57,446 nucleotides of DNA, taken from IMG/VR virus record IMGVR_UViG_3300035139_000059, positions 1 to 57,446 of that record; one strand, written 5' to 3'. A program made the translations under genes and the position numbers. Every line of letters begins with the position of its first letter. Positions within the stretch are counted from its first letter, which is position 1. Under the pieces are notes generated by a model. It was given only the letters and a program-made list of their open reading frames with translations, was not told where the DNA came from and searched no databases. This stretch comes from a virus (lineage: Duplodnaviria > Caudoviricetes). Positions 3,102 to 54,873 of the stretch are shown one piece after another.

Positions 3102-3235
3102 AAATAAAAATAATATAAAAAGTACTTGAAATGTGGTCTTTAGGAGGTGCTATAGCTACAATAATGTCGAGTAGATGGAGTGGGCCGAAATGTGGGACTG
3201 TAAAAATGGAGGAGTGAATTATGAGAGAATTTAAA
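3102..3235 (+). repeat. Intergenic mosaic of three fragments copied from elsewhere in the genome
   Basis: 3102-3132 equals 5167-5197. 3133-3184 matches 520-571 with 2 mismatches. 3185-3235 equals 2079-2129. Confidence 0.9.
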
Positions 3236-3811
3236 AAATCAGAAATGAAAAAAATAAAAGTGACTTGTTCAGGTGCTGGATTTTTAAAAATATATGAATT
3301 AATAAATTTTCAAGGAAATTTGAAAAAAATATCTAAAAATAATTTGGATAAATTAAAAAAGAGAATAAAAAAAGATGGAATAAATTCTCCTTTTTTTATA
3401 TGGAAATATAAAAAAATAAATTATATATTAGATGGACATCAAAGATTAAAAGCATTATTATCGTTACAAGATGAAGGTTATAATATTCCATTGATTCCTG
3501 TTGCGTATATAGAGGCAAAAAATAAAAAAGACGCGAAACAAAAACTATTAGGGATTAATTCTCAATTTGGGGATTTTAATTTAGAAGATTTTAAAGAATG
3601 GACGGGAAATATAGAAGAAAATTTTAAAGAAACTATTAGAATTCTAGATAATCAAACTTTATTTGATGTTAAAGAAAAAAATAAAGAAATTGAAAAAAAT
3701 ATTCCTTCGTTATTTCAAATTATTATAGATTGTGAAAATGAAGAAAAACAGAAAGAATTTTATAATAAATTAACAAAAGAAGGTTATGAATGTCAAGTTT
3801 TAATATTATAA
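3221..3811 (+). CDS. ParB/Srx-like N-terminal domain protein (terminase-linked type)
   Basis: LKKRIKKDG..PFFIW..YILDGHQRLKAL, with a C-terminal IIIDCENEEKQ..GYEC module typical of phage ParB-like proteins next to modification genes. Confidence 0.8.
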   Translation: MREFKKSEMKKIKVTCSGAGFLKIYELINFQGNLKKISKNNLDKLKKRIKKDGINSPFFIWKYKKINYILDGHQRLKALLSLQDEGYNIPLIPVAYIEAKNKKDAKQKLLGINSQFGDFNLEDFKEWTGNIEENFKETIRILDNQTLFDVKEKNKEIEKNIPSLFQIIIDCENEEKQKEFYNKLTKEGYECQVLIL

Positions 3812-10886: not shown

Positions 10887-11661
10887 TGTTGAAGGCAAAA
10901 TAAAAAAAGAAAGATTAAGAGCTTCTCTACAAAGAAGATGGACTGTTTTGCAGAACAAATTTGAAAAAGAATTAAGAACAGTTATAAGAAGTCAGTATTA
11001 TGCGGCTGCCAGAAATGTTGATGCATACGAATTAGATTTTTATTATACATTGGAACAATACAATAAAAGATTAAGGAATATATTTAGAAAATATTATAAA
11101 ATAATAGCAGTAGAATTTGGCGAAAAGATGTTAGAAGAAACACAAAAAAGTTTTATTAGATATGAACAAAAAGGCCTTATTGATGATTTTTGGCGTTTTG
11201 TGATCGGATGGATTGCTACACAAGTTGGCAATAAAATAAGAATAGTTCAAAGAACCACAAGGCTTGCGATACAAAGAATTGTCAAAAAAGGCATAGAAGA
11301 AGGCAAAATAAATAGTGAAATAGCAAAACAGATTCGCACGACAAGTAGCATCATAGCGCCTTTTAGAGCGAAACGTATAGCAAGAACAGAAACGCATACA
11401 ACTGTTAATTATGCTATGACTGAGGCGATGGGTCAAACTGGATTAATTCAGGAAAAAGAATGGCTTAGCGCAAAAGATGATCGCACAAGACATGGAAAAT
11501 TTGATCATGTTGGCGCAAACGGCGAAAGAGTTGCTTTGGATGACACTTTTAAAAGAACAGGAGAAAATCTTGAATACCCTGGCGATCCTGACGGATCAGT
11601 AGGCAATATCGTGAATTGTAGATGTATTTCTTTATTCCATACGAAAAGAAAGGTAGCATGA
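10879..11661 (+). CDS. Minor head morphogenesis protein (SPP1 gp7 / Mu gpF-like)
   Basis: RAKRIARTET, KEWLSAKDDRTR..H and YPGDP..VNCRC. Confidence 0.9.
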   Translation: MIDVEGKIKKERLRASLQRRWTVLQNKFEKELRTVIRSQYYAAARNVDAYELDFYYTLEQYNKRLRNIFRKYYKIIAVEFGEKMLEETQKSFIRYEQKGLIDDFWRFVIGWIATQVGNKIRIVQRTTRLAIQRIVKKGIEEGKINSEIAKQIRTTSSIIAPFRAKRIARTETHTTVNYAMTEAMGQTGLIQEKEWLSAKDDRTRHGKFDHVGANGERVALDDTFKRTGENLEYPGDPDGSVGNIVNCRCISLFHTKRKVA

Positions 11662-25985: not shown

Positions 25986-27086
25986 ATGTTTGAACGACCC
26001 ACGTTGACAGAAATAATAACAAGAATAAAAAATGATATAGTATCAAGAATAACTGGCGCGAGTACACTGTTAAGACGATCGATTCTTTCAGTTTTCGCGA
26101 CTGCGTTTGGAGGCGCTATTCATTCGCTGTATGGCAATATAGAATATAACAAAGATCAATTATTTATATTAGACGCTGATTTAGAAAGTTTAAAAAAACA
26201 CGCGAATGAATATGGGTTGTCTTTGAATGAAGCGGAAAAAGCAACAGGAGAAGTGACCGCAACGGGAACAGCTGGGACCTCTATTCCTATTTATTCAGAA
26301 CTTCAAAGCGCCACGGGACAAGTTTATTTAACAGATACAGCCGCTATTTTGGACGCGGGGGGTCTTGCGACTATTGACATAACCGCGAAAGTAGCTGGCG
26401 AAAATGGAAATGATGACGCGGGAATTAGTTTATCTTTTGTAAGTCCTATATCTGGTGTAAATACTACTGTTACAGTAGGCGCTACTGGCCTAAGTGGCGG
26501 CGCTGATGAGGAAGAAGAAGATGATTTTAGAAATAGAATATTAACAAGGAAAAGAAAGCCTCCGCATGGGGGAATTCAGGAGGATTATGTTAATTGGATG
26601 TTAGAAGTTTCAGGTGTCACAAGAGCCTGGTCAATTCCTATGTATCAGGGTGTTGGTACAATCGGTTGCGCTTTTGTAAGAGATAACGATGATTCTATTT
26701 TTCCAGATGATTCAGAAAAAGAAACCGTATATGATTATATAGTAAGTCACACTGAAGAAGTTACGGGTAAAATCGTTGGTGCGCCAGTTACGGCGGTAGA
26801 AAATATTTACATGATCAGCCTTTCGCCTTTAGCAGTTAATTTTAATATTCAGATTTCTCCTAACACTGGCGATGTGCAAACTGCCGTAACAAGTCAATTA
26901 GAAGATTTAATAAATGTCGACGGTGGCCCTGAACAAACTATTAGATTATCAAGGGCAAGGGCTGCAATAAGTGCGGCTGCTGGTGAAGAATATCATGAAA
27001 TAACTTATCCGACTGAAGATATAACGGCTTCTTCACAGCAAATACATGTGTTGGGAACAATAACCTTTTCGGATTATGAGGGATAG
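25986..27086 (+). CDS. Baseplate wedge J-like, Mu gp47
   Basis: FERPTL, G..GN, GGADEE.EDDFR.R, PPHGG..DY..W and GVTRAW. Confidence 0.92.
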   Translation: MFERPTLTEIITRIKNDIVSRITGASTLLRRSILSVFATAFGGAIHSLYGNIEYNKDQLFILDADLESLKKHANEYGLSLNEAEKATGEVTATGTAGTSIPIYSELQSATGQVYLTDTAAILDAGGLATIDITAKVAGENGNDDAGISLSFVSPISGVNTTVTVGATGLSGGADEEEEDDFRNRILTRKRKPPHGGIQEDYVNWMLEVSGVTRAWSIPMYQGVGTIGCAFVRDNDDSIFPDDSEKETVYDYIVSHTEEVTGKIVGAPVTAVENIYMISLSPLAVNFNIQISPNTGDVQTAVTSQLEDLINVDGGPEQTIRLSRARAAISAAAGEEYHEITYPTEDITASSQQIHVLGTITFSDYEG

Positions 27087-29772: not shown

Positions 29773-30549
29773 GTGCATAGAATTGAAGGCGCTAATGTAG
29801 ACTGGGAAAACGGGCGATCTTTTTTTCGTTCTGATCCTCCTTATACTGTCGTGACGCCAGAGTGGCTGACTGCTGTTCAAGAAGAAATAATGAATGTTTT
29901 ATCAGGCTTAGGTCTTCCGGTTTTGGGTCAGGCAAATGATACACACGATCAACTGTATACGGCAATAAATGGGTTATCTTCAGTTCCTGTAGGGTCGATA
30001 ATAGCGTGGTTACCTGGTTATTTCACAGACGGGGTAAATGGTGGCTATACCGCAGTTACTGATGTAGAACTTCCCAACAACTGGAAAGAATGCACTGGCG
30101 CTAATGTTAATGATTCTGCAAGTCCTATTTATAATGGCGCAGGGCGTTATTTGCCTAATTTAACAGATGACAGGTTTTTAATGGGTGATATTGCAGGTAG
30201 TGCAGGTGGAATTGGTGGAACTGATACACAGACACATAATATTCCGGCTCATTATCATGGGATGGGTACAGGTGCAACTTTGAATATTACTGCAAGCGGT
30301 AGCCACTTTCATAATGTTTGTACACAAAATACAGGTGGCTTAAGCCTTAATACATTATATAATAGTAGTTCCGGTTCCGCAGCAGCTCAAAATACAGATT
30401 CAAAAACACACACGCATGGTTCAGGTAATTTTTCTGGAGTGATAGGACTAGTTACAGGTGGTGTTAATGGTAATGCTTCTATGACAAGTGGATCATCGGA
30501 TAATAAACCAAAATATTTATCAGTTAGATATATACAAAGGATTAGATGA
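29773..30549 (+). CDS. Second tail fibre, paralogous N-terminus
   Basis: MHRIEG..TVVTPEWL..QEEIMNV is shared with 28523. It has a collar-like PVGSI..LPNLTD.RFLMG and HxH repeats. Confidence 0.82.
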   Translation: MHRIEGANVDWENGRSFFRSDPPYTVVTPEWLTAVQEEIMNVLSGLGLPVLGQANDTHDQLYTAINGLSSVPVGSIIAWLPGYFTDGVNGGYTAVTDVELPNNWKECTGANVNDSASPIYNGAGRYLPNLTDDRFLMGDIAGSAGGIGGTDTQTHNIPAHYHGMGTGATLNITASGSHFHNVCTQNTGGLSLNTLYNSSSGSAAAQNTDSKTHTHGSGNFSGVIGLVTGGVNGNASMTSGSSDNKPKYLSVRYIQRIR

Positions 30550-30833: not shown

Positions 30834-31358
30834 ATGAACAATGTTTTATTAACTAATATCATCATGGGTATTTTTGGATTTTTTATTACTTCTTTAGTTG
30901 GATTATTAATTTATATTTATAGAGGAAATTTAAAAAATTTTACCAAACATGTAAAAGAAGATGAAGATACAAAAAAAGATTTAGTTAATATATTAAATAG
31001 AAAAATGACTAAAGAAGAATGTGAGATTAGACAACAATATATTGATTATGCATTAAATGCGTGGCAAAATAAAACAAAAGATGATTTTATTTCAATTAAA
31101 GACATTGTTACAAATGCAATAAATAGACAAGGAAAAAATATTGATAAATTATTTGATAAATTTGAACATTTTCAAAAGGATTTAGGAATTAAATTCGAGA
31201 ATTTGCAAAAAGATTTTCGAGAATATATTTATGATAAAGAAAAAAAGGATAATGAATATAAATTGGAAATGAAAGGCAAAGTAACTAAAATGGAAAATAT
31301 AATTGAAAATTTTATTATAAATACAACAACAAAAAAAATACAAGAATTAAAAAATTAA
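30834..31358 (+). CDS. Single-TM coiled-coil protein (possible holin/lysis accessory)
   Basis: N-terminal TM helix and a charged helical remainder, at the end of the late operon. Confidence 0.55.
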   Translation: MNNVLLTNIIMGIFGFFITSLVGLLIYIYRGNLKNFTKHVKEDEDTKKDLVNILNRKMTKEECEIRQQYIDYALNAWQNKTKDDFISIKDIVTNAINRQGKNIDKLFDKFEHFQKDLGIKFENLQKDFREYIYDKEKKDNEYKLEMKGKVTKMENIIENFIINTTTKKIQELKN

Positions 31359-31374
31359 CAAAAATCTAATTAAA

Positions 31375-32052
31375 TTAATTATTTTTATAAAGATTTTTTA
31401 TTTTTAAAATATCAATTTCCGATAATTCATCGGAATATATTTGTTCTGGCATTTCTATCGTTTTTTTATTATTTTTAGAAAATGAATAACTTCTATAATG
31501 TAAAATAGATTTATAGTCATATTTGTATTTAAGAGGATCATATATATATTCATTTTTATCATAAATAATTGTAAAATTATTTATTTTATTATTTTTAATA
31601 TTTTCAAAATTAATTTTAATATATTGATCTCTATCTGGACGCTGATGCTCATGGCGAAATCCCAAGCAATGCATTAGTTCATGATTAATATGTTTTTTAT
31701 TAACTGTTTTTAATGTTATATAAGAAATTTCTGAACAACCTATTATTGAATAATTTTTATTTTCTTTAACTATTTTTACTATATATTTATTTTTATTTTC
31801 TGCTTTATTTTCTATAAAAAAAATACAATCTGTTCTATATTCTATAATATCCATACATTTTCGAATAAGTTTTTTTTCATCTTCAGAAAACCAATATAAT
31901 TTATAATATACTATTCCATTTTCCCATTTTTTAAGTGGAATATTAATATTAATTGCATTTTTTATATCTTTTTCGGAAATATCTATATATTCGCATTTTA
32001 TTATTAATAAAAAAGTTATAAATATAAATATTATTTTAAATAAATTATTCAT
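31375..32052 (-). CDS. Astacin-family (M12A) zinc metalloprotease with signal or lipoprotein peptide
   Basis: HELMHCLGFRHEHQRPDRD zinc motif, YDYKSILHY at the Met-turn position, and a hydrophobic leader ending in Cys20. Confidence 0.88.
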   Translation of the reverse strand: MNNLFKIIFIFITFLLIIKCEYIDISEKDIKNAININIPLKKWENGIVYYKLYWFSEDEKKLIRKCMDIIEYRTDCIFFIENKAENKNKYIVKIVKENKNYSIIGCSEISYITLKTVNKKHINHELMHCLGFRHEHQRPDRDQYIKINFENIKNNKINNFTIIYDKNEYIYDPLKYKYDYKSILHYRSYSFSKNNKKTIEMPEQIYSDELSEIDILKIKNLYKNN

Positions 32053-32248
32053 TTTTAATTCCTTTAATTTTATTTAATTTTTTATAAAAATTTTTTAAAC
32101 ATTGAATTTTTTCAATTTTTTGTTTTAAATTTTTAATTTCTTTTTTTGTACTTAAATATAATCTTTTATTTTTTATATCAATAATATAGTTTATTTTTTC
32201 ACTCATATTATTTTTTATATCAATAATATAGTTTATTTTTTCATTCAT
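32045..32248 (-). CDS. Hypothetical protein with a duplicated 14-aa N-terminus
   Basis: MNEKINYIIDIKNN / MSEKINYIIDIKNK. Confidence 0.5.
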   Translation of the reverse strand: MNEKINYIIDIKNNMSEKINYIIDIKNKRLYLSTKKEIKNLKQKIEKIQCLKNFYKKLNKIKGIKNE

Positions 32249-32249
32249 A
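32166..32249. repeat. 42-bp tandem duplication
   Basis: Two adjacent 42-bp units (32166-32207 and 32208-32249) with one mismatch. Confidence 0.85.
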
Positions 32250-32426
32250 ATTAAATTCCTTGTTTATTGTATTAACTATATTGTCGATACTTTTTTTAAG
32301 TTTATTATAAGCTTTAATTAAATATTCTATTTTTTCAATCGCTTTTATAGTTTCTTTATTTTTAATATAACTTAATTTATAAGTTGTATTATCTATTTTA
32401 AAAGATTTAATTTTAATTTCATTCAT
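32241..32426 (-). CDS. Hypothetical protein, first gene downstream of the ribozyme
   Basis: Strong AAGGAGGA RBS at 32432-32439 (minus strand). Confidence 0.6.
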   Translation of the reverse strand: MNEIKIKSFKIDNTTYKLSYIKNKETIKAIEKIEYLIKAYNKLKKSIDNIVNTINKEFNYE

Positions 32427-32446
32427 AATAATCCTCCTTTTTAGGG

Positions 32447-32472
32447 AGCGCCCCTGGGCGGGTAGGGGCGCT
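32447..32472 (-). promoter_or_regulatory. GC-rich stem-loop between the ribozyme and the RBS
   Basis: Perfect 9-bp stem AGCGCCCCT/AGGGGCGCT with an 8-nt loop. There is no U-tract in the transcribed direction. Confidence 0.6.
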
Positions 32473-32483
32473 TAGAAATTATG

Positions 32484-32537
32484 ATCTTCTCTCTGCATTT
32501 ACCCGGACTTGAGACCGGCCTCGGTTGCATTAAAGAT
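32484..32537 (-). ncRNA. Twister self-cleaving ribozyme (type P1)
   Basis: RNA AUCUU-UAA-UGCA-ACC-GAG-G-CCGG-UCUCAAGU-CCGG-GUAAA-UGCA-GAG-AG-AAGAU. P1, P2, P4 and both pseudoknots pair, and the conserved UAA, CAAG and GAG are present. Confidence 0.92.
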
Positions 32538-32538
32538 T

Positions 32539-32556
32539 CTAGCCCCGAAGGGCTAG
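32539..32556 (-). promoter_or_regulatory. C(UUCG)G tetraloop hairpin immediately 5' of the ribozyme
   Basis: CUAGCCC-UUCG-GGGCUAG, with a near-identical copy at 39951-39968. Confidence 0.75.
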
Positions 32557-32568
32557 TTTTGATTTAAA

Positions 32569-32841
32569 TTATCTATCTCCCCAAATTCGCAAACCTTTTT
32601 TTCGCAAGTTTTCTTCAATCTTTCGAGTATTTTTGTATAAATACTTTTCTGAAGTAGTTCTATCATAATAACACATTTCTTGAAAATTCTTATCATTATC
32701 TAATTCAAAGATCGCTTCTCTGATTGATTCTTTAATTGTTTTATGATGCCCGTATCTTGTCCCGTAAGGATAATCCATCACCGTTCTAATCATTTTTTTG
32801 GTAACTGTATCTGCTGATTGTTCTTTTGTTAATTTAGTCAT
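32569..32841 (-). CDS. Hypothetical early protein (cassette 1 cargo)
   Basis: GGAGG RBS. It lies between promoter repeat copy 1 and the hairpin/ribozyme. Confidence 0.75.
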   Translation of the reverse strand: MTKLTKEQSADTVTKKMIRTVMDYPYGTRYGHHKTIKESIREAIFELDNDKNFQEMCYYDRTTSEKYLYKNTRKIEENLRKKGLRIWGDR

Positions 32842-32853
32842 AATTTCCTCCCT

Positions 32854-32967
32854 GGCCGAAGCCTTTTATAATTTCTATATACAATATACTAAATTATTAT
32901 AATTTTGTCAATTATTTTTTTTTTTTTTATAAATAATTTTATAAAAATGTTTTATAATTTTTATTTT
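32854..32967 (-). promoter_or_regulatory. 114-bp repeated sigma70 promoter element, copy 1
   Basis: An A14 tract, TTGACA (32911-32906), a 17-bp spacer and TATATT, then GGC-TTCG-GCC. It is the reverse complement of 39141-39254. Confidence 0.88.
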
Positions 32968-33464
32968 TTGTATTCTCTTAAATATTTAGCAATAAATAAT
33001 CCATCTGCGTCTTTTTGTTGTATTATTTCGTCTTTCATTTCTGGAAAAATTCTAATTCCAATATCACGAGATATTTTTTTTAAATTTACTGATCCTTTAA
33101 TTCCTTTAGGAAAATATATTTTTTGCCATGTTTTTGAATCTATATATATATAAGATAATAATAATTGTTCGATGGCAATAAGCTGCGATTCTAAACATCG
33201 TGAGGCACTAATAGTAGCTTTAAATCGTGTATGATTTATCATCGGCCTTTCTAATGCAATTTTACAATTTCCTTGATGTTTTAAAGCATTGAGTAAATTA
33301 AAAAAATTATCAAAACATATTCTTGTTATTTGTTGTTTAGTTTTTGTATAAGATTGTTCTGTTTTAATAGGAATTTTAATTAATTTGTATTTTTCTGTTT
33401 TATTATAAATTATTCCAATTGAACCAGTAACTCCGTTATCTATTCCTATATAAATTTTTTGCAT
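32961..33464 (-). CDS. RuvC-like Holliday junction resolvase
   Basis: IGIDNG, IALERP, W.K and DADGLFIA acidic motifs of phage RuvC-like nucleases. Confidence 0.78.
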   Translation of the reverse strand: MQKIYIGIDNGVTGSIGIIYNKTEKYKLIKIPIKTEQSYTKTKQQITRICFDNFFNLLNALKHQGNCKIALERPMINHTRFKATISASRCLESQLIAIEQLLLSYIYIDSKTWQKIYFPKGIKGSVNLKKISRDIGIRIFPEMKDEIIQQKDADGLFIAKYLREYKK

Positions 33465-33469
33465 TATTT

Positions 33470-33634
33470 TTATTTATTTAAATATTTTTCTATTGCTAAA
33501 TCAATATAATCTTCTAAAATTTGTGTAGCTGTAAAAGATTTTTTCCATTTTCTATCATTAGCAATTTTTTTAATTTTTTCATATGTTTTTTCTGAAATAG
33601 TTGGATGAATTTGACCCTGAATTTTTTTTGTCAT
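33470..33634 (-). CDS. 54-aa ribbon-helix-helix (Arc/CopG-like) regulator, not in ORF track
   Basis: MTKKIQGQIHPTISEKTYEKLKKIANDRKWKKSFTATQILEDYIDLAIEKYLNK*, with an AGGAG RBS and a strand-helix-helix pattern. Confidence 0.6.
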   Translation of the reverse strand: MTKKIQGQIHPTISEKTYEKIKKIANDRKWKKSFTATQILEDYIDLAIEKYLNK

Positions 33635-33659
33635 TTGTTTTCTCCTATTTTTTATGTCT

Positions 33660-33746
33660 AAGGTAATATTATTTTATATATATGTCAAATATTTTTTATA
33701 AAATCAAAAAAATTCCTTGACAAAATTAAAAAAATTTTATTTATTT
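33660..33746. promoter_or_regulatory. Back-to-back promoter region of the early divergence point
   Basis: TTGACA on the minus strand (33688-33683) and on the plus strand (33717-33722), between divergent genes. The -10 boxes are imperfect. Confidence 0.45.
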
Positions 33747-35469: not shown

Positions 35470-36171
35470 ATGAGAATAAAAAATAACACAACAAAAATGC
35501 CAGTAATAGGCAAAATAAAAGTTGGTGAAAGAAATGAAAATGGATATCCAATTTCTTTAGATTATTTTAGAGCAACAGGAAAACATAAAAATGAATTTTA
35601 TAGAATTTTTGGTGAAAAGCCTAACAATATTAAAATACTTTTTCTTGATGATGATAATAGTATTGATGTAAGATATGAATTAAGGCAAGGGAAAAAACTA
35701 TACGCATATTCAGATGGCGAAAATGTTTTTGCATATCATAAAGAATTAGATAAATATGCTTTACAAGAAAAACCTTTTATTGATTTAGAAGAAAAATATG
35801 TAAAAATTATTGGAAATGAATGGGAAAAAATTTTAAGACTATATTTTTTAATCCTGGAAATAAAAATTTGGGGATTATGGTGTTTTGAAACAAAAGGGGT
35901 TGAATCAACTATACCTCAGATCGAGGGTAGTTATGATTCTGTATATGCCAGAGCTGGCACTGTGGTAAATATTCCATTTGATTTAGAAGTTAAGAAAGTT
36001 GTTTCACAAAAGCCAGATAGTAAAAATAGTTATCCTGTAGTTAGTTTAACAGCTAATTTAAGTGAACCGTCATTAGAAAAAATAAGAAATGCAATAATGA
36101 ATGACGTACAAATAAATGGAATGATAACAGAAGAAAAATTAAATCGAATTGGGTTTAAGGGGGAGAATTAA
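35470..36171 (+). CDS. Gp3-like / recombination-directionality-factor-like protein, probable annealing partner of the exonuclease
   Basis: MP.IGKIKVG..YP..LDYF, L.F.I..G.W.F.TK and IPF.L..V..YPVV, adjacent to the exonuclease. Confidence 0.6.
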   Translation: MRIKNNTTKMPVIGKIKVGERNENGYPISLDYFRATGKHKNEFYRIFGEKPNNIKILFLDDDNSIDVRYELRQGKKLYAYSDGENVFAYHKELDKYALQEKPFIDLEEKYVKIIGNEWEKILRLYFLILEIKIWGLWCFETKGVESTIPQIEGSYDSVYARAGTVVNIPFDLEVKKVVSQKPDSKNSYPVVSLTANLSEPSLEKIRNAIMNDVQINGMITEEKLNRIGFKGEN

Positions 36172-46919: not shown

Positions 46920-48311
46920 ATGGCCAAATTAGCAATAAATGGTGGCGAGCCAATAAGAAAAAATTTATTACCAGCTCAAGAAACTATAGGAAAAGAAGAA
47001 AAAAAGGCAGTTTTGAAAATTTTAGATAATAAATTATTATCGGGATATAGAGGTAATAGTTCTAGTGCTTTTTTAGGTGGGACAAAAGTACAAGAATTTG
47101 AAAAGTTTTTTGTTGACTATTTTGTTTTAGATAATTATTTAAATTATGGATTTACGGGAATTGCATCAAATAGTTGCACATCTTCTTTAATTATGGCATG
47201 TGGAGCAATTGGATTAGAGCCTGGGGATGAAGTTATTGTAACTCCCTGGTCAATGAGTTGTTCCGCATCGGCTCCTTTGTGGTATGGGGCTATACCTGTT
47301 TTTGCTGATATAGAAGAGGATTATTTTTGTCTTGATCCAAAATCAATAAAAGAAAAAATAACAGATAAAACAAGAGCGATTATTGTTGTTGATCTTTTCG
47401 GTCAACCTTTTAATCCGGAAATTATAGATATAGCCAAAAAACATAATTTATATATAATTGAGGATGCTGCGCAAGCAATTGGGTCTAAATATGGAAATAT
47501 ATACGCTGGTTTTTTAGGGGATATAGGTTGTTTTAGTTTTACACAAGGGAAACATTTAACTGCCGGAGAAGGTGGAATCAGTGTATCTAAAAATTTAGAT
47601 TTAGTACATAGGATGAGATTGATCAGAAATCATGCTGAGGCGGTTATTTCTGACATAAACGACAAATATGGACTTACTAAATTTTTTGTTTCTGCTAATG
47701 TATTGTCAAATGGCGAAAAAATGAGAATTGATTTGGCTAGATGTATTTTAGAAGAAAAAGAATTAATTGTTTTTGATGAATTTACCTCCGTCTTAGGGGC
47801 TAATTTCAGATTAACAGAAATACAAGCAGCTATTATGATAGAACAATTAAAAAAACTAAGAGATTTTGCATATAGGCGAACAGAGAATGTATTTTATTTT
47901 AATGAGGCTCTAAGTAAGATTCCTTGTATTTCAACAACAAAAATAAGAAAAAATTGCACCCATTCTTATTATGTGCAAGCATTTAAATTTGATAATAATT
48001 ATGATGTACATAGAGATAAATTTATTGAAGCTGTAAAAGCTGAATTAAAACCACAAAAAGGACGTGCTGATTTAGGTGTTGCGATTGGTTGTGGATATAC
48101 AAAACCTTTATATTTAACTCCATTATATCAAAAAAAAATGCATTGGGCTTTAAAAAATACAGATTATAATTTCAGTTTGCCAGTTGTAGAGAAATTATGG
48201 AAAGACGATTTATTTTTATGGACATTGCAGGGCTTGTCTTTAAATGATAAAGACAGAAAAGATATTGTTGATGCTTTTTATAAAGTTTGGGAAAATAGGG
48301 GTGAATTATAA
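46920..48311 (+). CDS. DegT/DnrJ/EryC1/StrS PLP-dependent sugar aminotransferase (PseC/SpsC-like role) with a 30-aa insertion
   Basis: LAINGG.P, GDEVIV, GAIPVFADI, IIEDAAQAIG, FSFTQGKHLTAGEGG (catalytic Lys) and G.NFRLTEIQAA. Confidence 0.93.
   Translation: MAKLAINGGEPIRKNLLPAQETIGKEEKKAVLKILDNKLLSGYRGNSSSAFLGGTKVQEFEKFFVDYFVLDNYLNYGFTGIASNSCTSSLIMACGAIGLEPGDEVIVTPWSMSCSASAPLWYGAIPVFADIEEDYFCLDPKSIKEKITDKTRAIIVVDLFGQPFNPEIIDIAKKHNLYIIEDAAQAIGSKYGNIYAGFLGDIGCFSFTQGKHLTAGEGGISVSKNLDLVHRMRLIRNHAEAVISDINDKYGLTKFFVSANVLSNGEKMRIDLARCILEEKELIVFDEFTSVLGANFRLTEIQAAIMIEQLKKLRDFAYRRTENVFYFNEALSKIPCISTTKIRKNCTHSYYVQAFKFDNNYDVHRDKFIEAVKAELKPQKGRADLGVAIGCGYTKPLYLTPLYQKKMHWALKNTDYNFSLPVVEKLWKDDLFLWTLQGLSLNDKDRKDIVDAFYKVWENRGEL
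47696..47791 (+). repeat. 96-bp exact copy of 4134-4229 (ABC signature to Walker B)
   Basis: Base-for-base identity. Both proteins contain NVLSNGEKMRIDLARCILEEKELIVFDEFTSV. Confidence 0.95.
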
Positions 48312-48964
48312 TGTTTATTTTAGATATGGGTTCTGGTAATTCGTGTGATAATCATTTCTCAACAATAAAAGAAATGATAGATTCTATCGCAGAAATAGAT
48401 AAAGATCGCAAGATTATCTTGAAATGGCAGCTTTTCAAAGAAGCTGGTAAAAATGTACCTTTAGATCATGACAGTTTTAGACAAGCATATGAATATGCAA
48501 AATATAAAGGTTTCAAGACAACAGCTAGTGTTTTTGATAAAGAAAGTTTAGATTTTTTATTAACTTTTGATATTCCTTTTGTCAAGATTGCGAATAATGA
48601 AAAATATTATTATCTTGTGAATGAAATACCGAGAGGTATTATAGCAATAATTAGTGCTGATTTTTATGATCTTAAGAAATTTCCTATTAGTTTCAGAGAT
48701 TTTTTTAATAATTTATTTATGCATTGTGTTCCTAAATATCCAGCCGAAATGGAAGATTATATAAAAACACAAAAAGGTCTTCCGCATTTGTTTTTAACGG
48801 CTGGAATTTCTGATCATACAACAAACTGGGATTTATATAGAAAATATAAACCTAAAATATACGAATGTCATTATGTTTTAAAGCATAATAAAAATAATTT
48901 AGATGGGGGTTTATTTGCTAGAACACCAGAAATGCTGGAGGAAATTATTGATGAAATTGAATAA
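48311..48964 (+). CDS. NeuB-family nonulosonic acid synthase (PseI/SpsE-like), short form lacking the SAF domain
   Basis: KWQLF, ASVFD.ESLDFL..PFVKIA, MHCVPKYPA, GISDHT and ECHY.L. Confidence 0.85.
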   Translation: MFILDMGSGNSCDNHFSTIKEMIDSIAEIDKDRKIILKWQLFKEAGKNVPLDHDSFRQAYEYAKYKGFKTTASVFDKESLDFLLTFDIPFVKIANNEKYYYLVNEIPRGIIAIISADFYDLKKFPISFRDFFNNLFMHCVPKYPAEMEDYIKTQKGLPHLFLTAGISDHTTNWDLYRKYKPKIYECHYVLKHNKNNLDGGLFARTPEMLEEIIDEIE

Positions 48965-49736
48965 TGTTGGCGCAATAATCCCAGTTAGATTTAATTCTAA
49001 AAGATTGCCTGGTAAAGTTTTATTGCCAATTGCAGGGAAGATAAATATTGAAAGAATAATTGAACGATTATTTTTATCGGTATATATAAAAAAAGTGGTT
49101 TTAGCAATACCTGAAAATGATACAAACGAAATATTAGATTGGTATGAGAATTGGCAATACAAAAATAAAAGAAAAAAAATAAAAATATATATAGGAGCTA
49201 ATAATAATTTAATTGGAAGATGTTTAAAGGCAGCAGAAAAAGAAAATCTTGATATAATAATTGATTTAAGCCAAGATTTATGTTTTGTTGATCCTGCTAT
49301 AGTAGATATATTGGTTTTTAGATTAAAAAAATATAATGCTGATTATTCATCTAATGTTTGCACAAGATCATTTCCGGATGGTTTTGATGTACAAGTTTAT
49401 ACAAAAGATATTTATAAAAAAATATATTCTATAATCCCTAAAAATCATTTTAGTAAAAAATGGACTGGATGGAATATTTTTTATTGGCGACATGATTTTG
49501 ATCCACAGCCACGAATAATAAATTTTGAAGCACAATCAAAATATTATTTTCCTCATTGGAGATTATGTTTAGATACAATAGAAGATCAAAAAATAATTGA
49601 AAATATTTATTTAAATGCATCTAAAAGTAAAACATATTTATGTTATCAGGATATAATTAAGTATATTTTGTCTAATAAAAATATTTTAAATAAGAATAAA
49701 AATATTAAATCAACTAAATTAGAAAAGGAAAGATAA
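48951..49736 (+). CDS. SpsF-like cytidylyltransferase-family protein (copy 2; probable start ATG 48951)
   Basis: IIPVRFNSKRLPGKVL, D.CFVDP, SFPDGFDVQV and RLCLDTIED, with a GGAGG RBS. Confidence 0.87.
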   Translation: MKLNNVGAIIPVRFNSKRLPGKVLLPIAGKINIERIIERLFLSVYIKKVVLAIPENDTNEILDWYENWQYKNKRKKIKIYIGANNNLIGRCLKAAEKENLDIIIDLSQDLCFVDPAIVDILVFRLKKYNADYSSNVCTRSFPDGFDVQVYTKDIYKKIYSIIPKNHFSKKWTGWNIFYWRHDFDPQPRIINFEAQSKYYFPHWRLCLDTIEDQKIIENIYLNASKSKTYLCYQDIIKYILSNKNILNKNKNIKSTKLEKER

Positions 49737-50438
49737 ATGTTATTAGGATTTTCGACAGGGTCGAGTTATAAATTTTTAGATTTAAAAAATAATGATGAGG
49801 CAAATTCTATAATTTATTTCTTTCGATTGTTGCGGGAAAATATTGATTTTAATTGTTTAGAAATAATATTGACTGAGGAAATAATAAATACATTTTTTAA
49901 AATTTCAGAACAAAATTTTGAATGGTTAAAAAGTTTAGATTATTTATCTTTTCATCTGATAAATGAAAAATATAATAATGAAAAAGTTTTTAAACTTTTC
50001 AATAATATTAATTATAAAATAATATGTCATTCAGACGAATATTTTTTATTATCTAAAAATTTTAGAGGTAAATATACAAAAAACATTTTATTAGAAAATA
50101 TAGATTATGATAAAATAGAGTATGGGCACGATTATGATTTATGTTTTGATATCGCTCATGCCGAAACAATAGGGAAAGTCAGAAGTTATTATAATGAATA
50201 TTTTGATAATATAAAAGAAATTCATTTTTCTAAGCATATTAAAACAAAAGTCGTAAATTCTGATAAAAAAATTATTACTGAACATCATTTACCAATTGTA
50301 AGATTTGACAAAATAGAAGAATTAAAAATTTTAAAAGATTGTAAAATTCCTGTTATAATTGAAGGGGGTTGCGATTCTTGTTTAGAAATGATAAATGAAT
50401 TTTATTATATAAAAAAGTATATAAAAGGAAAAAAATGA
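49737..50438 (+). CDS. AP-endonuclease-2 / sugar-phosphate isomerase-like TIM-barrel metalloenzyme
   Basis: GFST, LE, SFH, LLENID, CFDIAHA, EIHFS, H.P and IIE metal-ligand pattern. Confidence 0.7.
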   Translation: MLLGFSTGSSYKFLDLKNNDEANSIIYFFRLLRENIDFNCLEIILTEEIINTFFKISEQNFEWLKSLDYLSFHLINEKYNNEKVFKLFNNINYKIICHSDEYFLLSKNFRGKYTKNILLENIDYDKIEYGHDYDLCFDIAHAETIGKVRSYYNEYFDNIKEIHFSKHIKTKVVNSDKKIITEHHLPIVRFDKIEELKILKDCKIPVIIEGGCDSCLEMINEFYYIKKYIKGKK

Positions 50439-51394
50439 AGATGAATTATTTTAAAGGCAAAGAAATACTTATTATAGGTGGTACGGGCAGTTTAGGGACT
50501 AATTTATTTGATTATTTAATCAAAAATTATGAACCTCGTGGGATTAGGATTTTTTCACGAGACGAATTAAAACAATGGGAATTACAAAAAAAAATAAAAA
50601 CAAAAATTCCCGTGGTTTATATTTTAGGGGATATTAGGGATTTCAAAGCCATTTGCAGGGCAATGAATAGAGTTGATATTGTAATAAATGCTGCTGCTTT
50701 AAAACAAGTCGGCGCCTGTGAAAATAATGTATACGAAGCTATTAATACAAATATAATAGGGTCTCGAAATGTTGTGGATGCTGCTATTAATAATAAAGTT
50801 GCATATGTTATGCATTTATCTACAGATAAAGCCGTTGAATCTATAAATCTATATGGTAAAACAAAGGCAGTAGCTGATAGTATTTTTTTATTTGGCAATA
50901 CGCTATCTGGTTCTCGAACAAAATTTAATATATGCAGATATGGTAATGTTTTAGGTTCTCGGGGTTCTGTTATTGAATTGTTTATAAAACAATCAAAAGA
51001 AAAAGGTGAAATTACAATTACAGATAAAAAAATGACAAGATTTTGGATAACACTAGATAGAATTGTTAAATTTATTTGTAATAAAATAGAAAATTATAAT
51101 GATTCATCCGGAAATATTTTTATTCCTGAAATATATTCATGCAGAATAATTGATTTAATACAAATTATGAAAGATTTTGGTATTATTAATAAAAATATAA
51201 GAAAAAAAGTGATAGGAATACAAAAAGGTGAAAAATTGCATGAATGTTTATTATCTAATAAACAAATAAACAATATATGTATATTAGATAATTTTGAAAA
51301 TATTAAAGAAATGTATAGCGATAAAATGATAGACAATAAATGTATAATTGAAATTAAAAAATATTTAAGAGATAAATTTTTAAAAATATTATAA
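50435..51394 (+). CDS. pseB: UDP-GlcNAc 4,6-dehydratase, PseB/FlaA1-like
   Basis: GGTGSLG, IFSRDELKQ, AALKQV..CE, STDKAV..NLYGKTK, RYGNVLGSRGSVI, MTRFWI and GEKLHE. Confidence 0.88.
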   Translation: MKMNYFKGKEILIIGGTGSLGTNLFDYLIKNYEPRGIRIFSRDELKQWELQKKIKTKIPVVYILGDIRDFKAICRAMNRVDIVINAAALKQVGACENNVYEAINTNIIGSRNVVDAAINNKVAYVMHLSTDKAVESINLYGKTKAVADSIFLFGNTLSGSRTKFNICRYGNVLGSRGSVIELFIKQSKEKGEITITDKKMTRFWITLDRIVKFICNKIENYNDSSGNIFIPEIYSCRIIDLIQIMKDFGIINKNIRKKVIGIQKGEKLHECLLSNKQINNICILDNFENIKEMYSDKMIDNKCIIEIKKYLRDKFLKIL

Positions 51395-51406
51395 AAAGGT
51401 ATTAAT

Positions 51407-52063
51407 ATGAAAATATTATATAAAACAGATAGATTATTAATTTGTAAATTTGATAGAGATTTTTTAAAAGAGGTAAAAAGTAACTATCAAGATTGGTTCT
51501 ATGATGAAGAAATAACAAAAAATAATCATCATGGATTATTCCCATACGGGAAAAAAGAATTTGAAAATTATCTTGATATGTGTGAGACATGTAAAAAAGA
51601 TATTGTTTTTGCTATAGTAGTACGTAAATTTGAAGAAGGATATTGGTTTTCTGATGAAGAAATACCGATACATTTAATTCATATTGGCAATATATCATTG
51701 CAAAGAATAAATCAAATTTATAGATCGGCAGAATTTGCTATTGTTATGGATAATAAATATCACAATCAGGGTTATGCAACTGAAGCATTAAAAAAATTAT
51801 TAGAACATGGATTTAAAAAATTAAATTTGCATAGAATATGGTCTGGGACTGCTGAAACTAATATTGGCATGTTAAAAGTTTTTGAAAAATTAGAAATGCA
51901 ACAAGAAGGGGTTTTTAGAGAAGCAATGTTTATAAATGGTAATTATAGAAATATTTTATGTTATTCTATTTTAGAAAATGAATATTATAAAAAATATTGT
52001 TTAAATGAAAATGAATTTTGTAAAAGTGCAAAAAAAATATTAAGTTATGGGAAAAAAAAATGA
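51407..52063 (+). CDS. RimJ/RimL-type GNAT N-acetyltransferase (PseH-like role)
   Basis: HIGNISL..I..RSAE, GYATEA, LNLHRI..N..KLEM..EG.FR. Confidence 0.85.
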   Translation: MKILYKTDRLLICKFDRDFLKEVKSNYQDWFYDEEITKNNHHGLFPYGKKEFENYLDMCETCKKDIVFAIVVRKFEEGYWFSDEEIPIHLIHIGNISLQRINQIYRSAEFAIVMDNKYHNQGYATEALKKLLEHGFKKLNLHRIWSGTAETNIGMLKVFEKLEMQQEGVFREAMFINGNYRNILCYSILENEYYKKYCLNENEFCKSAKKILSYGKKK

Positions 52064-52251
52064 ATGATGATAAAATAATTAATAAAATTAGTCAAATCCG
52101 TAAAAATAATAATAAACTCTGGATGAATATATTAAAAATAGCTTTTAAAAAAGATGAAAAAAAAGCAAGAAAAATATTAAGGGATATTGTTGTAAATGAT
52201 AGTAAAATCACAGAATTATGTAAAATTTTATGCAATAAGGAATCAAAATGA
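52060..52251 (+). CDS. Small helical protein coupled to the acetyltransferase
   Basis: ATGA overlap and IRKNNNKLWM.IL.IAF. Confidence 0.65.
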   Translation: MNDDKIINKISQIRKNNNKLWMNILKIAFKKDEKKARKILRDIVVNDSKITELCKILCNKESK

Positions 52252-52275
52252 AATTTTTTAATTAAAGGATTTAAA

Positions 52276-54873
52276 ATGAAAGATTATTTAAATAAAAATT
52301 TAAGTTATATACAAAATAACAAAATAGTTAAAAATATAAAAGAGAGCAATTTGCCTGAATGGTTAGAAATAAAGGATAATAATTTATTAATAAAAAAAAG
52401 AAATAGAGTAGTTGCTGCTTATCCAGATAACATTAAAGATGAAATGGCACAAATCAATAAACAAAAAATATTTTATTCTGATAGTTGTACAGTTTTAATT
52501 GGTGCTGGATTAGGATATTTAGTTGAAGCTATTTTTAAAAGTGCTGATTTTGATCATAAAATAATTTTAATTGATCCAATAATAGGATTAATAAAAGAAA
52601 CTCTTAAAAAAAATGATTTTTCAAAATATATTAAAAAAAATCAATTATTTTTTGTATTTTCTAAAGATGAAGTTGTTCAAGCTGTTGCAGAAATTGAAGG
52701 AATTTTTGTTATTCAAAATTGGTTAATTTTTACAGAAAAATATACATTGCATTTAGAAGAATATTCAGAAATAATTCCGCATGTTATTGAAGTTATAAAT
52801 CAGGAAAGATGTAATGTGGGCACTGTTGCTGGCGCAGGAAGTATTATTGCTGAAAATGATATAAAGAATCTTCCGTTTTGTATTAGGCATCGTGGTATTA
52901 ATGAATTAAAAAATTTTTATAAAGGCAAACCAGCTATATTAATAGCGACTGGCCCTTCAATTCAAAACAATATCCATCTTTTGAGGAAAATACAAAATAA
53001 AGCTATAATTATAACAGTCGCGCAGGCATTAAGAATGTTATTAGCGTATGATATAAAACCTGATTTTATTACTACAGTTGATTATGGCGAAGTAAATTAT
53101 GAGCATTTTAAAGGGTTAATGGATATAAATTTGCCTTTAGTTTGTTTAAATAGAACATACGCGAAGATATTAAAAGAGTGGGAAGGGCCTAAATTTGTAA
53201 CAACTTCTCCACAACCTGGAAGTGAAAATTCTGCGATTGGATATTTATATAAAAAAGGTGCTTTAGAATCAGGGGGTAGTGTTGTACATTTATCTTTTCA
53301 ATTAGCAAAACATTTAGGTTGCAATCCTATTATATTTTTGGGGCATAGTTTTAGTTTTGGAAAAGGATTATCACATACATTACAAGTAGACGCAGGCGGG
53401 AAAATTGAAACAGAAAATGGAGTTGTTAAATGGAAAATTTTAGACCCTAAGAGTTCCTTAAAAGGAAAAGATTATACACAAGGGAATAGTGTATATCTTC
53501 CTGGCATTTTGGGGGAAGATGTATTAACAAATGTAGGACTTATGAGTTTTGTAACCTCGATGGAAAGAATGATAAAAGTTCATGAAGGGACAGTAATAAA
53601 TGCTTCTGAGGACGGTGTTGCGATAAAAGGTTGTCGTAATTTAACGTTAAAAAAAGTAATAGAAAATTATTTACAAGAAAATATAAATAAATCAAAAATA
53701 AAAAAATTATATTCTTTATCTGATAATTGGGAAAATGATATAAAAAATATAATTGAATTATTAAAAAAAGATATAAAAATATTAAATAAAATTATTGATA
53801 ATTCTAAAAAAGGAGAAAAAGCAGCAAAAGAATTATTAAAAAAATATCTTACAAAAGAAGAATATTACTATAATATAAAAGAAAATGAGAAATATGCAAA
53901 AAAAGCACATTTTTATGCGAAACAAAACGCTTTGATAGGACTTGCAATATATGCTGAGTCAAGATTAATTCATAATAGAAGATATAAATTAAATTTAAAT
54001 AAAAATTATAAGAATTCTTTAGAAAGAAAAAAAGATGTAAATAAAAAATTTTGGAATGATTTTAATGAGAGAGAAAAAGGTGCTGAAAAAAGTATTTTGA
54101 TTTTGGAAGCTGCTAAAAAAGCAGCTAAAAAGTTAAAAATAATGTATAAAGATGTTTTAAATTTATTTGAAAAATATTTAATAACAAAAGATGAAAATTT
54201 ATTTGTGTCTAAAGAAAATTATAAAGTAGATATAAATTCGTTTGATAAATATCTTGATGTTGGGAATTGGACACACCCATATATTGATTTAAAAAAAATA
54301 TCAGTTCATCAAATTATAAACGAAAACGTTTGGGATTATTATAAAAGAATAAAAAAAGTAAAAAAAGAAGAATTGGAAAAATCAGAAAAAAATTATGATA
54401 AAATTGCAGATGAAAAGCAAAAATTACTTGATTTTTTATTTTATATAAAAGAAGCTCATAAATTAGGAAGAGAAAAAAAAGATTTTTATGGTGCAATTGA
54501 TAAACTAGAGAAAGCTGTTAAATTAATGCCAAAACGAATTGAAGGGCGATGGGGATTAGCTTCTGCTAATTTTTATGTTGGTAATATAGAAAAAGCTAAA
54601 AAATTGTTTGAAAAATTATGTAGTGATTTTGGAGATAGAAATCCTAGGATGTTTTTTGAATATGGAGTAATTTTATTAAATTATGATATTCAAGAAGGTA
54701 TCAAATATATCAAAAAAGCAATGGATTTTAACAATGAATTTGATTATTTTTTTAAAGAATTAGGAAATTTATATGGTCAAATGGGTAATTATAAAATGGC
54801 TAAAGATGCATATTTAAAATATAAAGAATCTTATCCGGATGATTATACAGTAGATTGTTATTTAGATAAATAA
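52276..54873 (+). CDS. Maf-type (MAF_flag10/DUF115) nonulosonate glycosyltransferase with C-terminal TPR repeats
   Basis: N-terminal G.GLGY region, EN.KN, KGKPAILIATGPS, IKPDF..VD, GGSV.H..A..LGCNPIIFLG..SF and VINASE.G..I.G. About 3-4 TPR units lie at the C-terminus. Confidence 0.85.
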   Translation: MKDYLNKNLSYIQNNKIVKNIKESNLPEWLEIKDNNLLIKKRNRVVAAYPDNIKDEMAQINKQKIFYSDSCTVLIGAGLGYLVEAIFKSADFDHKIILIDPIIGLIKETLKKNDFSKYIKKNQLFFVFSKDEVVQAVAEIEGIFVIQNWLIFTEKYTLHLEEYSEIIPHVIEVINQERCNVGTVAGAGSIIAENDIKNLPFCIRHRGINELKNFYKGKPAILIATGPSIQNNIHLLRKIQNKAIIITVAQALRMLLAYDIKPDFITTVDYGEVNYEHFKGLMDINLPLVCLNRTYAKILKEWEGPKFVTTSPQPGSENSAIGYLYKKGALESGGSVVHLSFQLAKHLGCNPIIFLGHSFSFGKGLSHTLQVDAGGKIETENGVVKWKILDPKSSLKGKDYTQGNSVYLPGILGEDVLTNVGLMSFVTSMERMIKVHEGTVINASEDGVAIKGCRNLTLKKVIENYLQENINKSKIKKLYSLSDNWENDIKNIIELLKKDIKILNKIIDNSKKGEKAAKELLKKYLTKEEYYYNIKENEKYAKKAHFYAKQNALIGLAIYAESRLIHNRRYKLNLNKNYKNSLERKKDVNKKFWNDFNEREKGAEKSILILEAAKKAAKKLKIMYKDVLNLFEKYLITKDENLFVSKENYKVDINSFDKYLDVGNWTHPYIDLKKISVHQIINENVWDYYKRIKKVKKEELEKSEKNYDKIADEKQKLLDFLFYIKEAHKLGREKKDFYGAIDKLEKAVKLMPKRIEGRWGLASANFYVGNIEKAKKLFEKLCSDFGDRNPRMFFEYGVILLNYDIQEGIKYIKKAMDFNNEFDYFFKELGNLYGQMGNYKMAKDAYLKYKESYPDDYTVDCYLDK

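Follow-up and report, generated by a model that had tools for sequence, protein, structure and literature searches.

An intergenic gap of 142 nt on the minus strand of an uncultured wetland contractile-tailed phage raises the question of whether its RNA contains a self-cleaving ribozyme, and of what a cut at this place would do to the messages on either side. The window (the whole stretch of DNA that was analysed, 57,446 nt) is the entire IMG/VR record of this phage, is estimated to be approximately 50% complete, and was present in four wetland DNA runs, one of which may be its source, with no RNA run among those listed. Genes for terminase, portal, major head, sheath, tape measure, baseplate and tail fibre occupy the plus strand to approximately position 30549, and genes for an exonuclease, a Gp3-like recombination directionality factor and a DnaD-like loader are found on the plus strand from 33788. 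The candidate ribozyme lies between these tail-fibre and replication genes, within the only minus-strand block of the window. An earlier note on this DNA had called the block an early operon, a label that we do not retain: a sole minus-strand block in this position is equally a lysogeny or accessory position of temperate phages, and the Gp3-like factor is encoded nearby. The domain of that factor (35470-36171, plus strand; PF18897, E = 3.8e-24) and a ParB-like protein (3221-3811, plus strand) hint at a temperate or plasmid-like lifestyle, and no integrase was found among the annotated ORFs of this half-complete record. The plus-strand region 46920-54873 encodes an aminotransferase-like protein, a nucleotide-sugar epimerase, an acetyltransferase and an 865-aa ORF without family, which is unusual cargo for a phage.

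In the order of transcription, the minus-strand block was found to contain a 54-aa ORF, a 167-aa ORF, a 90-aa ORF, the ribozyme region, a 61-aa ORF, a 67-aa ORF and a 225-aa astacin-family protease. The first two span 32961..33634, and the product of the second is Holliday-junction-resolvase-like (phrog_1770, E = 2.4e-7). The 90-aa ORF (32569..32841) is the upstream cistron, and its stop codon lies 12 nt before a hairpin, designated P0 here. Downstream of the ribozyme, the Shine-Dalgarno sequence AAGGAGG was read directly at 32433..32439, six nt before the ATG (32426) of the 61-aa ORF (32241..32426). The 67-aa ORF (32045..32248) and the ORF of the astacin-family metalloprotease (31375..32052; PF01400, E = 7.2e-32) follow, each overlapping the preceding ORF by 8 nt. 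These overlaps suggest that the last three ORFs form one translationally coupled unit. A promoter-like site upstream of the 90-aa ORF (32883..32911, minus strand; TTGACA-17-TATATT, 11 of 12 matches, by consensus match only) was the best of 22 such sites in the region, a number that is not above chance (25.9 in shuffles). No promoter-like site for the downstream genes was found in the 142-nt gap.

The translated astacin protease is of secreted type, with a hydrophobic N-terminus and an intact zinc-binding motif, and what is presumably its Met-turn position reads SILHY. Tblastn of this phage-borne astacin against 50,697 GenBank phage records gave no match, so that it stands without detectable counterpart among GenBank phages, and searches of viral contigs and genome contigs yielded no relatives. 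Relatives of the 90-aa protein were absent from the viral contigs searched, and blastn of positions 31300-33700 against GenBank phages was blank. The 54-, 90-, 61- and 67-aa proteins could be assigned to no PHROG family and, at a threshold as loose as E <= 5, to no Pfam family; a match of the 90-aa ORF to RNA_pol (E = 0.0065) was below the cut-off and was disregarded, and identification of the 54-aa protein as a ribbon-helix-helix regulator was dropped for want of support. The start of the 67-aa ORF is a near-perfect 14-residue tandem repeat (MNEKINYIIDIKNN / MSEKINYIIDIKNK).

Read on the minus strand, positions 32484..32537 (54 nt) form every pair of a type-P1 twister ribozyme lacking stem P3 (18/18 pairs). 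P1 pairs AUCUU with AAGAU (32537-32533 with 32488-32484, 5 bp), and the unpaired U6-A7-A8 lies directly 3' of its first strand. P2 (UGCA/UGCA, 4 bp) is followed by the dinucleotide A13-C14, and a four-nucleotide junction closed by a G takes the place of P3. P4 (CCGG/CCGG, 4 bp) encloses the loop UCUCAAGU, and UAAA and GAGAG are also present. All helix pairs are formed (5/5 in P1, 4/4 in P2 and 4/4 in P4), and the two pseudoknots consist of C25-G49, U26-A48 and C27-G47 (T1, 3 bp, joining L4 to L1) and of A13-U31 and C14-G30 (T2, 2 bp). By homology, in O. sativa numbering, the equivalents of the catalytic residues G45 and A7 are positions 32493 and 32531, and the scissile step is predicted from the Rfam consensus UAA to be U^A, between U6 (32532) and A7 (32531). 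The stems, the pairs U26-A48 and A13-U31, the A7 and G45 equivalents and the U^A site had been assigned in the earlier note, and direct reading confirmed all of these positions. This architecture agrees with the description of the family in PMC5408937, where P1, P2 and P4 are given as essential and P0, P3 and P5 as optional; P3 is expendable and is replaced by a short junction in approximately 20% of annotated twisters, such as that of O. sativa; T1 is three Watson-Crick pairs; T2 forms between a conserved L2 GC and two bulged nucleotides of L4; and G45 and A7 are the catalytic residues.

When a 261-nt segment was scanned at permissive settings, 32536..32485 matched RF03160 (type-P1 twister) over model positions 1-68 of 68 with 54.1 bits (E = 1e-11), and the sole gap in the alignment was the deleted P3 stem-loop. 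In the cmscan alignment the conserved core matched the consensus UAA, GGUC.CAAG.CC, UAAA and GAG.G, and the four conserved loop positions at which the sequence departs from the Rfam consensus were found to make up two compensated pairs, U26-A48 and A13-U31. Against 4,227 Rfam families, the whole window gave twister-P1 as its sole match at E <= 0.05 (E = 2.2e-9), with no other ribozyme or structured RNA at that level and no tRNAs; with the twister-P1 model alone (E = 5.2e-13) there was one such element in the entire record. At gathering scores, the default Rfam scan of the whole window was blank, the twister scoring 54.1 bits against the 67.2 bits required by RF03160, which is an operational threshold and not a structural feature. 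The score falls short because the optional P3 stem is deleted. Five other phage twisters without P3 scored 60.8, 56.2, 54.5, 50.9 and 42.8 bits, all below 67.2, and a P3-bearing copy in one of the same records scored 73 bits. The low score is therefore a property of the architecture and not of decay. In the minimum-energy fold of the 152-nt intergenic RNA (z = -3.55), P0, P1, P2, P4 and a hairpin downstream of the ribozyme were all retained; an 8-bp AU/GU-rich long-range helix between the upstream stop region and the RBS spacer was taken as chance in AT-rich sequence.

Related elements were collected by two IUPAC-pattern scans of IMG/VR contigs, which returned 33 contigs and more than 111 contigs. 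The contigs listed held 138 matches, of which 134 had enough flank (4 were dropped), and clustering at 85% identity reduced these to 90 clusters. Because the patterns used for recruitment kept the catalytic core constant, only P1, most of P2, the outer part of P4 and one pair each of T1 and T2 were free to covary; invariant pairs are uninformative because the pattern fixed them. Both of the free pseudoknot pairs were standard in 90/90 clusters among the matches listed, the middle pair of T1 being A-U in 72, C-G in 9, U-A in 6 and G-C in 3, and the outer pair of T2 being G-C in 74, A-U in 15 and G-U in 1. The window ribozyme thus carries the rarer forms of both, U-A in T1 (6/90) and A-U in T2 (15/90 of the listed clusters). 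All four P2 pairs were formed in 85/90 and all three outer P4 pairs in 87/90 clusters among the matches listed. The same double variant of T1 and T2 was found in 8 metagenome contigs representing seven distinct ribozymes, whose stems and flanks are unrelated and in which all helices are maintained; a search of metagenome contigs for the exact core pattern of the window ribozyme was blank.

The 44-nt core length of the window ribozyme was common to 33/90 clusters among the matches listed, and these P3-less sequences, the window included, were aligned without gaps and compared with 500 shuffles, which leave relatedness in. With the full pseudoknotted structure, 92.1% of cells in these 33 listed sequences were paired compared to 76.5% in the shuffles, 13 of the 18 pairs had changes on both sides, and none of the 500 shuffles reached any of five measures. 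When the partners were slid along the alignment, pairing fell to 19.7-44.4%. In the helices of the same 33 listed twisters, pairing was 99.2% for P2, 98.5% for P4 and 73.3% for P1, with both-side changes in 11 of 13 pairs; T1 and T2 cells were 100% paired, where the invariant pairs are fixed by the pattern. The twister fold is thus supported by strong covariation in P3-less phage relatives. As the earlier note had claimed, the twister is intact: the covariance model is matched over its full length, each core position is either present or changed together with its pairing partner, and the relatives covary. Taken together, the sequence evidence identifies 32537..32484 as a genuine P3-less type-P1 twister that is predicted to be self-cleaving, and we expect with considerable confidence that its RNA would cleave itself in vitro.

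The nearest ribozyme among the matches listed, with 91% core identity, was found at 10950-11290 in the contig labelled L097. A cassette shared with this contig was considered and rejected: L097 is unrelated and GC-richer, has GCGATCGC-type palindromes, which we take to be typical of cyanobacteria, and carries different genes and no downstream hairpin. The same ribozyme subtype therefore spans very different phage backgrounds.

Immediately upstream of the twister, at 32539..32556 on the minus strand, lies a 7-bp hairpin with a UUCG loop (-12.9 kcal/mol), separated from P1 by one spacer A. Its presence had been reported in the earlier note and was confirmed; moreover, such hairpins proved to recur beside phage twisters. 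Among the matches listed, at least 50/90 clusters had a hairpin of -6 kcal/mol or stronger that ended 0-2 nt before P1, compared to 53/447 control windows of the same loci, the first figure being a lower bound as a few register errors remain. Over the 90 listed clusters, the mean folding energy of the 32 nt upstream was -8.75 kcal/mol compared to -3.85 kcal/mol in controls (Mann-Whitney p = 2e-18), and in clusters without P1 the upstream hairpin adjoined the cleavage-site U directly. The P0 stem of twisters is, we assume, located immediately 5' of P1, and the UUCG hairpin is probably this optional stem. In the literature searched, no paper was found that joins stem P0 with the twister ribozyme.

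The hairpin could instead serve mainly as the intrinsic terminator of the 90-aa gene transcript, in which case the twister would merely trim read-through RNA. It was indeed flagged as terminator-like on both strands, with the tail AATCTTTAAT on the minus and TTTTGATTTA on the plus strand, and it is one of four such sites in the region compared to 0.3 expected. However, the tail has 5 T in 8 nt, so that the threshold is barely reached, and it is the AU-rich P1 strand of the locus with the lowest GC content among the matches listed (0.21). At least 5 T in the 8 nt after the stem were found in only 9/50 P0 hairpins among the matches listed, the window included; as a class, P0 hairpins do not appear to be terminators. 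In addition, the gap contains no promoter-like site for the downstream genes, which do have a strong RBS right behind the ribozyme block. Termination and cleavage are compatible with each other, and we regard a mainly terminating hairpin as distinctly unlikely.

The ribozyme is followed, ahead of the RBS, by a GC hairpin of 9 bp (32447..32472, minus strand, -18.3 kcal/mol), whose 8-nt loop is C-rich. The earlier note had placed this hairpin and a strong RBS downstream of the ribozyme; both are present (32472..32447; AAGGAGG), but the hairpin is at odds with a general twister design, the RNA behind phage twisters usually having unusually little structure. The 40 nt after phage twisters had a mean of -3.03 kcal/mol compared to -5.76 kcal/mol in controls (90 clusters among the matches listed), and a structure of -10 kcal/mol or stronger followed 6/90 listed twisters compared to 59/447 controls. 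At the 13 other loci with GC below 0.34 among the matches listed, no downstream structure was stronger than -5.7 kcal/mol. These counts rule out the downstream GC hairpin as a feature of the class, and its single copy in the window rules it out as a repeated phage element. No T-run follows it on either strand.

The structures flanking the ribozyme stand out against their surroundings. The 142-nt gap has 48.6% GC in a surrounding region of approximately 22% GC and a phage of 21-38% GC, and the only two perfect GC-rich hairpins in the 57-kb window are those on either side of the ribozyme. An inverted-repeat listing of the window was dominated by AT-rich palindromes and was uninformative. The downstream hairpin possibly insulates the RBS from neighbouring folds, stabilises the 5' end or is bound by a protein.

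The genes around phage twisters were then compared with those on the wrong strand of the same clusters, using a crude ORF caller that for the window itself chose a 47-aa overlapping frame. Among the matches listed, a same-strand ORF stop within 60 nt upstream was found in 62/90 clusters compared to 24/90 on the wrong strand, a Shine-Dalgarno sequence and start within 60 nt downstream in 46/90 compared to 8/90, and same-strand ORFs within 100 nt on both sides in 40/90 compared to 1/90. When 48 downstream ORFs among the matches listed were searched against PHROG, 30 had no family, 4 matched only families without known function and 14 were named. The latter comprised a DnaC-like loader, an HNH endonuclease, an SSB, a Mu Gam-like protein, FtsK/SpoIIIE-like proteins (2), transcriptional regulators (2) and the phrog_4681 'antitoxin' (6); no structural protein was found among these 14 listed neighbours. 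The setting of the window ribozyme fits this pattern. The earlier note had also assumed a polycistronic substrate, and here the arrangement holds: the ribozyme is co-oriented between minus-strand ORFs, as is typical of phage twisters, and the shared transcript itself is plausible.

Two further features of the collection were observed. The family phrog_4681 ('antitoxin from a toxin-antitoxin system') directly follows the twister in L036, L049, L061, L094, L134 and L141 (6/48), and is the sole recurrent named neighbour among the matches listed. Paired same-strand twisters within approximately 1 kb of each other were found at G004:C1:25520-25571 and 26356-26419, and also in L003/L015 (one contig), L130 and L134. 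Two twisters on one strand within approximately 1 kb would excise single genes from the transcript, as has been described for clustered hammerheads.

We infer one shared transcript, its cleavage and an effect on expression. The reading that we favour, and consider likely, is that a genuine P3-less twister with a P0 hairpin lies between the 90-aa gene and the coupled block and splits their mRNA. Once the gene cluster is transcribed, the RNA would adopt the double-pseudoknot twister fold and cut itself between U32532 and A32531. The upstream product would then carry a 2',3'-cyclic phosphate at its 3' end, behind the P0 hairpin and a tail of 7 nt. In the downstream product, the 5'-hydroxyl would be enclosed by what is left of the ribozyme (48 nt), after which would come the 9-bp GC hairpin, the strong RBS and the three genes. 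The two mRNA halves would be free to differ in lifetime and translation rate. Whether the ribozyme serves in this way to make the flanking cistrons independent of each other in stability or translation is, in our judgement, evenly balanced. It is tempting to go further and to view hairpin, twister and hairpin as a self-contained RNA-processing and insulating cassette, in which P0 would cap the cyclic-phosphate 3' end of the upstream RNA and the downstream hairpin would shield the RBS of an acquired astacin accessory module from the ribozyme fold, with P0-capped ends and unstructured leaders as a design rule of phage twisters. This extension is speculative, and we think it unlikely.

Cleavage could also be real and serve a purpose other than differential stability, acting as a regulated switch that responds to conditions or to a factor, or providing 5'-OH and cyclic-phosphate ends for ligation, for circular RNA or for an interplay with host RNA repair or defence. 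PMC6765202 and PMC5408937 describe the biological roles of twisters in bacteria and phages as undetermined, regulated cleavage and ligated or circular products have been raised for phage hammerheads in PMC3088659, and the locus-specific GC hairpin with its C-rich loop could serve as a binding site. On the other hand, the sequence has no sign of a ligand-binding insert, the ribozyme being the minimal P3-less form; a single ribozyme in the window offers no set-up for excising a defined RNA to be circularised; and the hammerhead authors report that spliced or circular products were not detected (PMC3088659). Such roles appear to us highly improbable. The least credible reading, to which we give hardly any weight, is that the element has lost its activity or resembles a twister by chance and that the intergenic structures serve another purpose: its score is below the Rfam gathering cut-off and no homologous locus was found to show purifying selection on the window copy, but the match is strong in the whole window (E = 2.2e-9), every core position is intact or compensated with 18/18 pairs formed, the low score is typical of the P3-less form (5/5 others also fall below the cut-off), and a structured block of 50% GC kept in a region of 22% GC argues for selection.

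The splitting of an mRNA, as first proposed for this locus, is a standard hypothesis already in print (PMC6765202, PMC3088659). The comparative data are consistent with this mRNA-processing hypothesis, in which both cleavage and its consequence are predicted. The window twister adds one to the thousands known, in a setting, near phage genes, that has already been reported, and parts of the P0 and gene-context statistics may already be contained in Roth 2014 and Weinberg 2015. The P3-less form, which made up 33/90 of the pattern-recruited phage clusters among the matches listed, escapes Rfam annotation at default settings, and twisters in viral metagenomes are probably under-annotated. The hairpin abutting P1 (in at least 56%), the co-orientation with neighbouring genes, the unstructured leader and the early or regulatory neighbours, none of them structural, all found among the matches listed, sharpen the long-standing question of what bacterial and phage twisters are for. 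With these figures, reporters that carry or lack P0 could put the mRNA-processing hypothesis to a direct test. In its natural form the locus already combines, within a short distance, a promoter-like site, a gene, P0, the ribozyme, a hairpin, an RBS and genes, and it could be transferred unchanged into a reporter system. Its layout of ribozyme, hairpin and RBS resembles what we take to be the design of the RiboJ insulator, by analogy only.

Compared with known systems, the window ribozyme is most directly like the RF03160 type-P1 twister of O. sativa form, with which it shares P1-P2-P4, both T1 and T2, the U^A site, the approximately ten strongly conserved nucleotides of L1 and L4 and a short junction for P3. 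It differs from the RF03160 norm in its score below the gathering cut-off, its two rarer pseudoknot variants, its AU-rich P1 and its locus of 21% GC. Bacterial twisters are described in a 2019 review (PMC6765202) as lying near phage genes and as having gene neighbourhoods in common with hammerheads; the review suggests that they process polycistronic transcripts into RNAs of differing stability or translation, and leaves their purpose undefined. The word 'twister' in PMC6078989 is the name of a phage and not of a ribozyme. Hammerheads of phages and prophages flank genes and cleave polycistronic RNAs of approximately 2 kb in vitro, and the 5' end of an early halovirus transcript maps no more than three nucleotides away from where a hammerhead cuts (PMC3088659). 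As described there, they resemble the window twister in lying between co-oriented phage genes, in being proposed as transcript cutters and in their association with early-type or accessory genes. Unlike them, the window twister belongs to another ribozyme class and is a single copy, not a flanking pair. Approximately 90% of hatchet ribozyme sequences from the environment have a P0, which cleavage does not require (PMC10761166, PMC4604424), and the hairpin of the window is like it in standing just upstream of P1, outside the catalytic core. Cleavage by glmS lowers expression (PMC6765202); the window twister differs from glmS in having no ligand-sensing domain and, by analogy, would resemble it in that the predicted leader cleavage would produce a 5'-OH mRNA with a fate differing from that of the uncut RNA.
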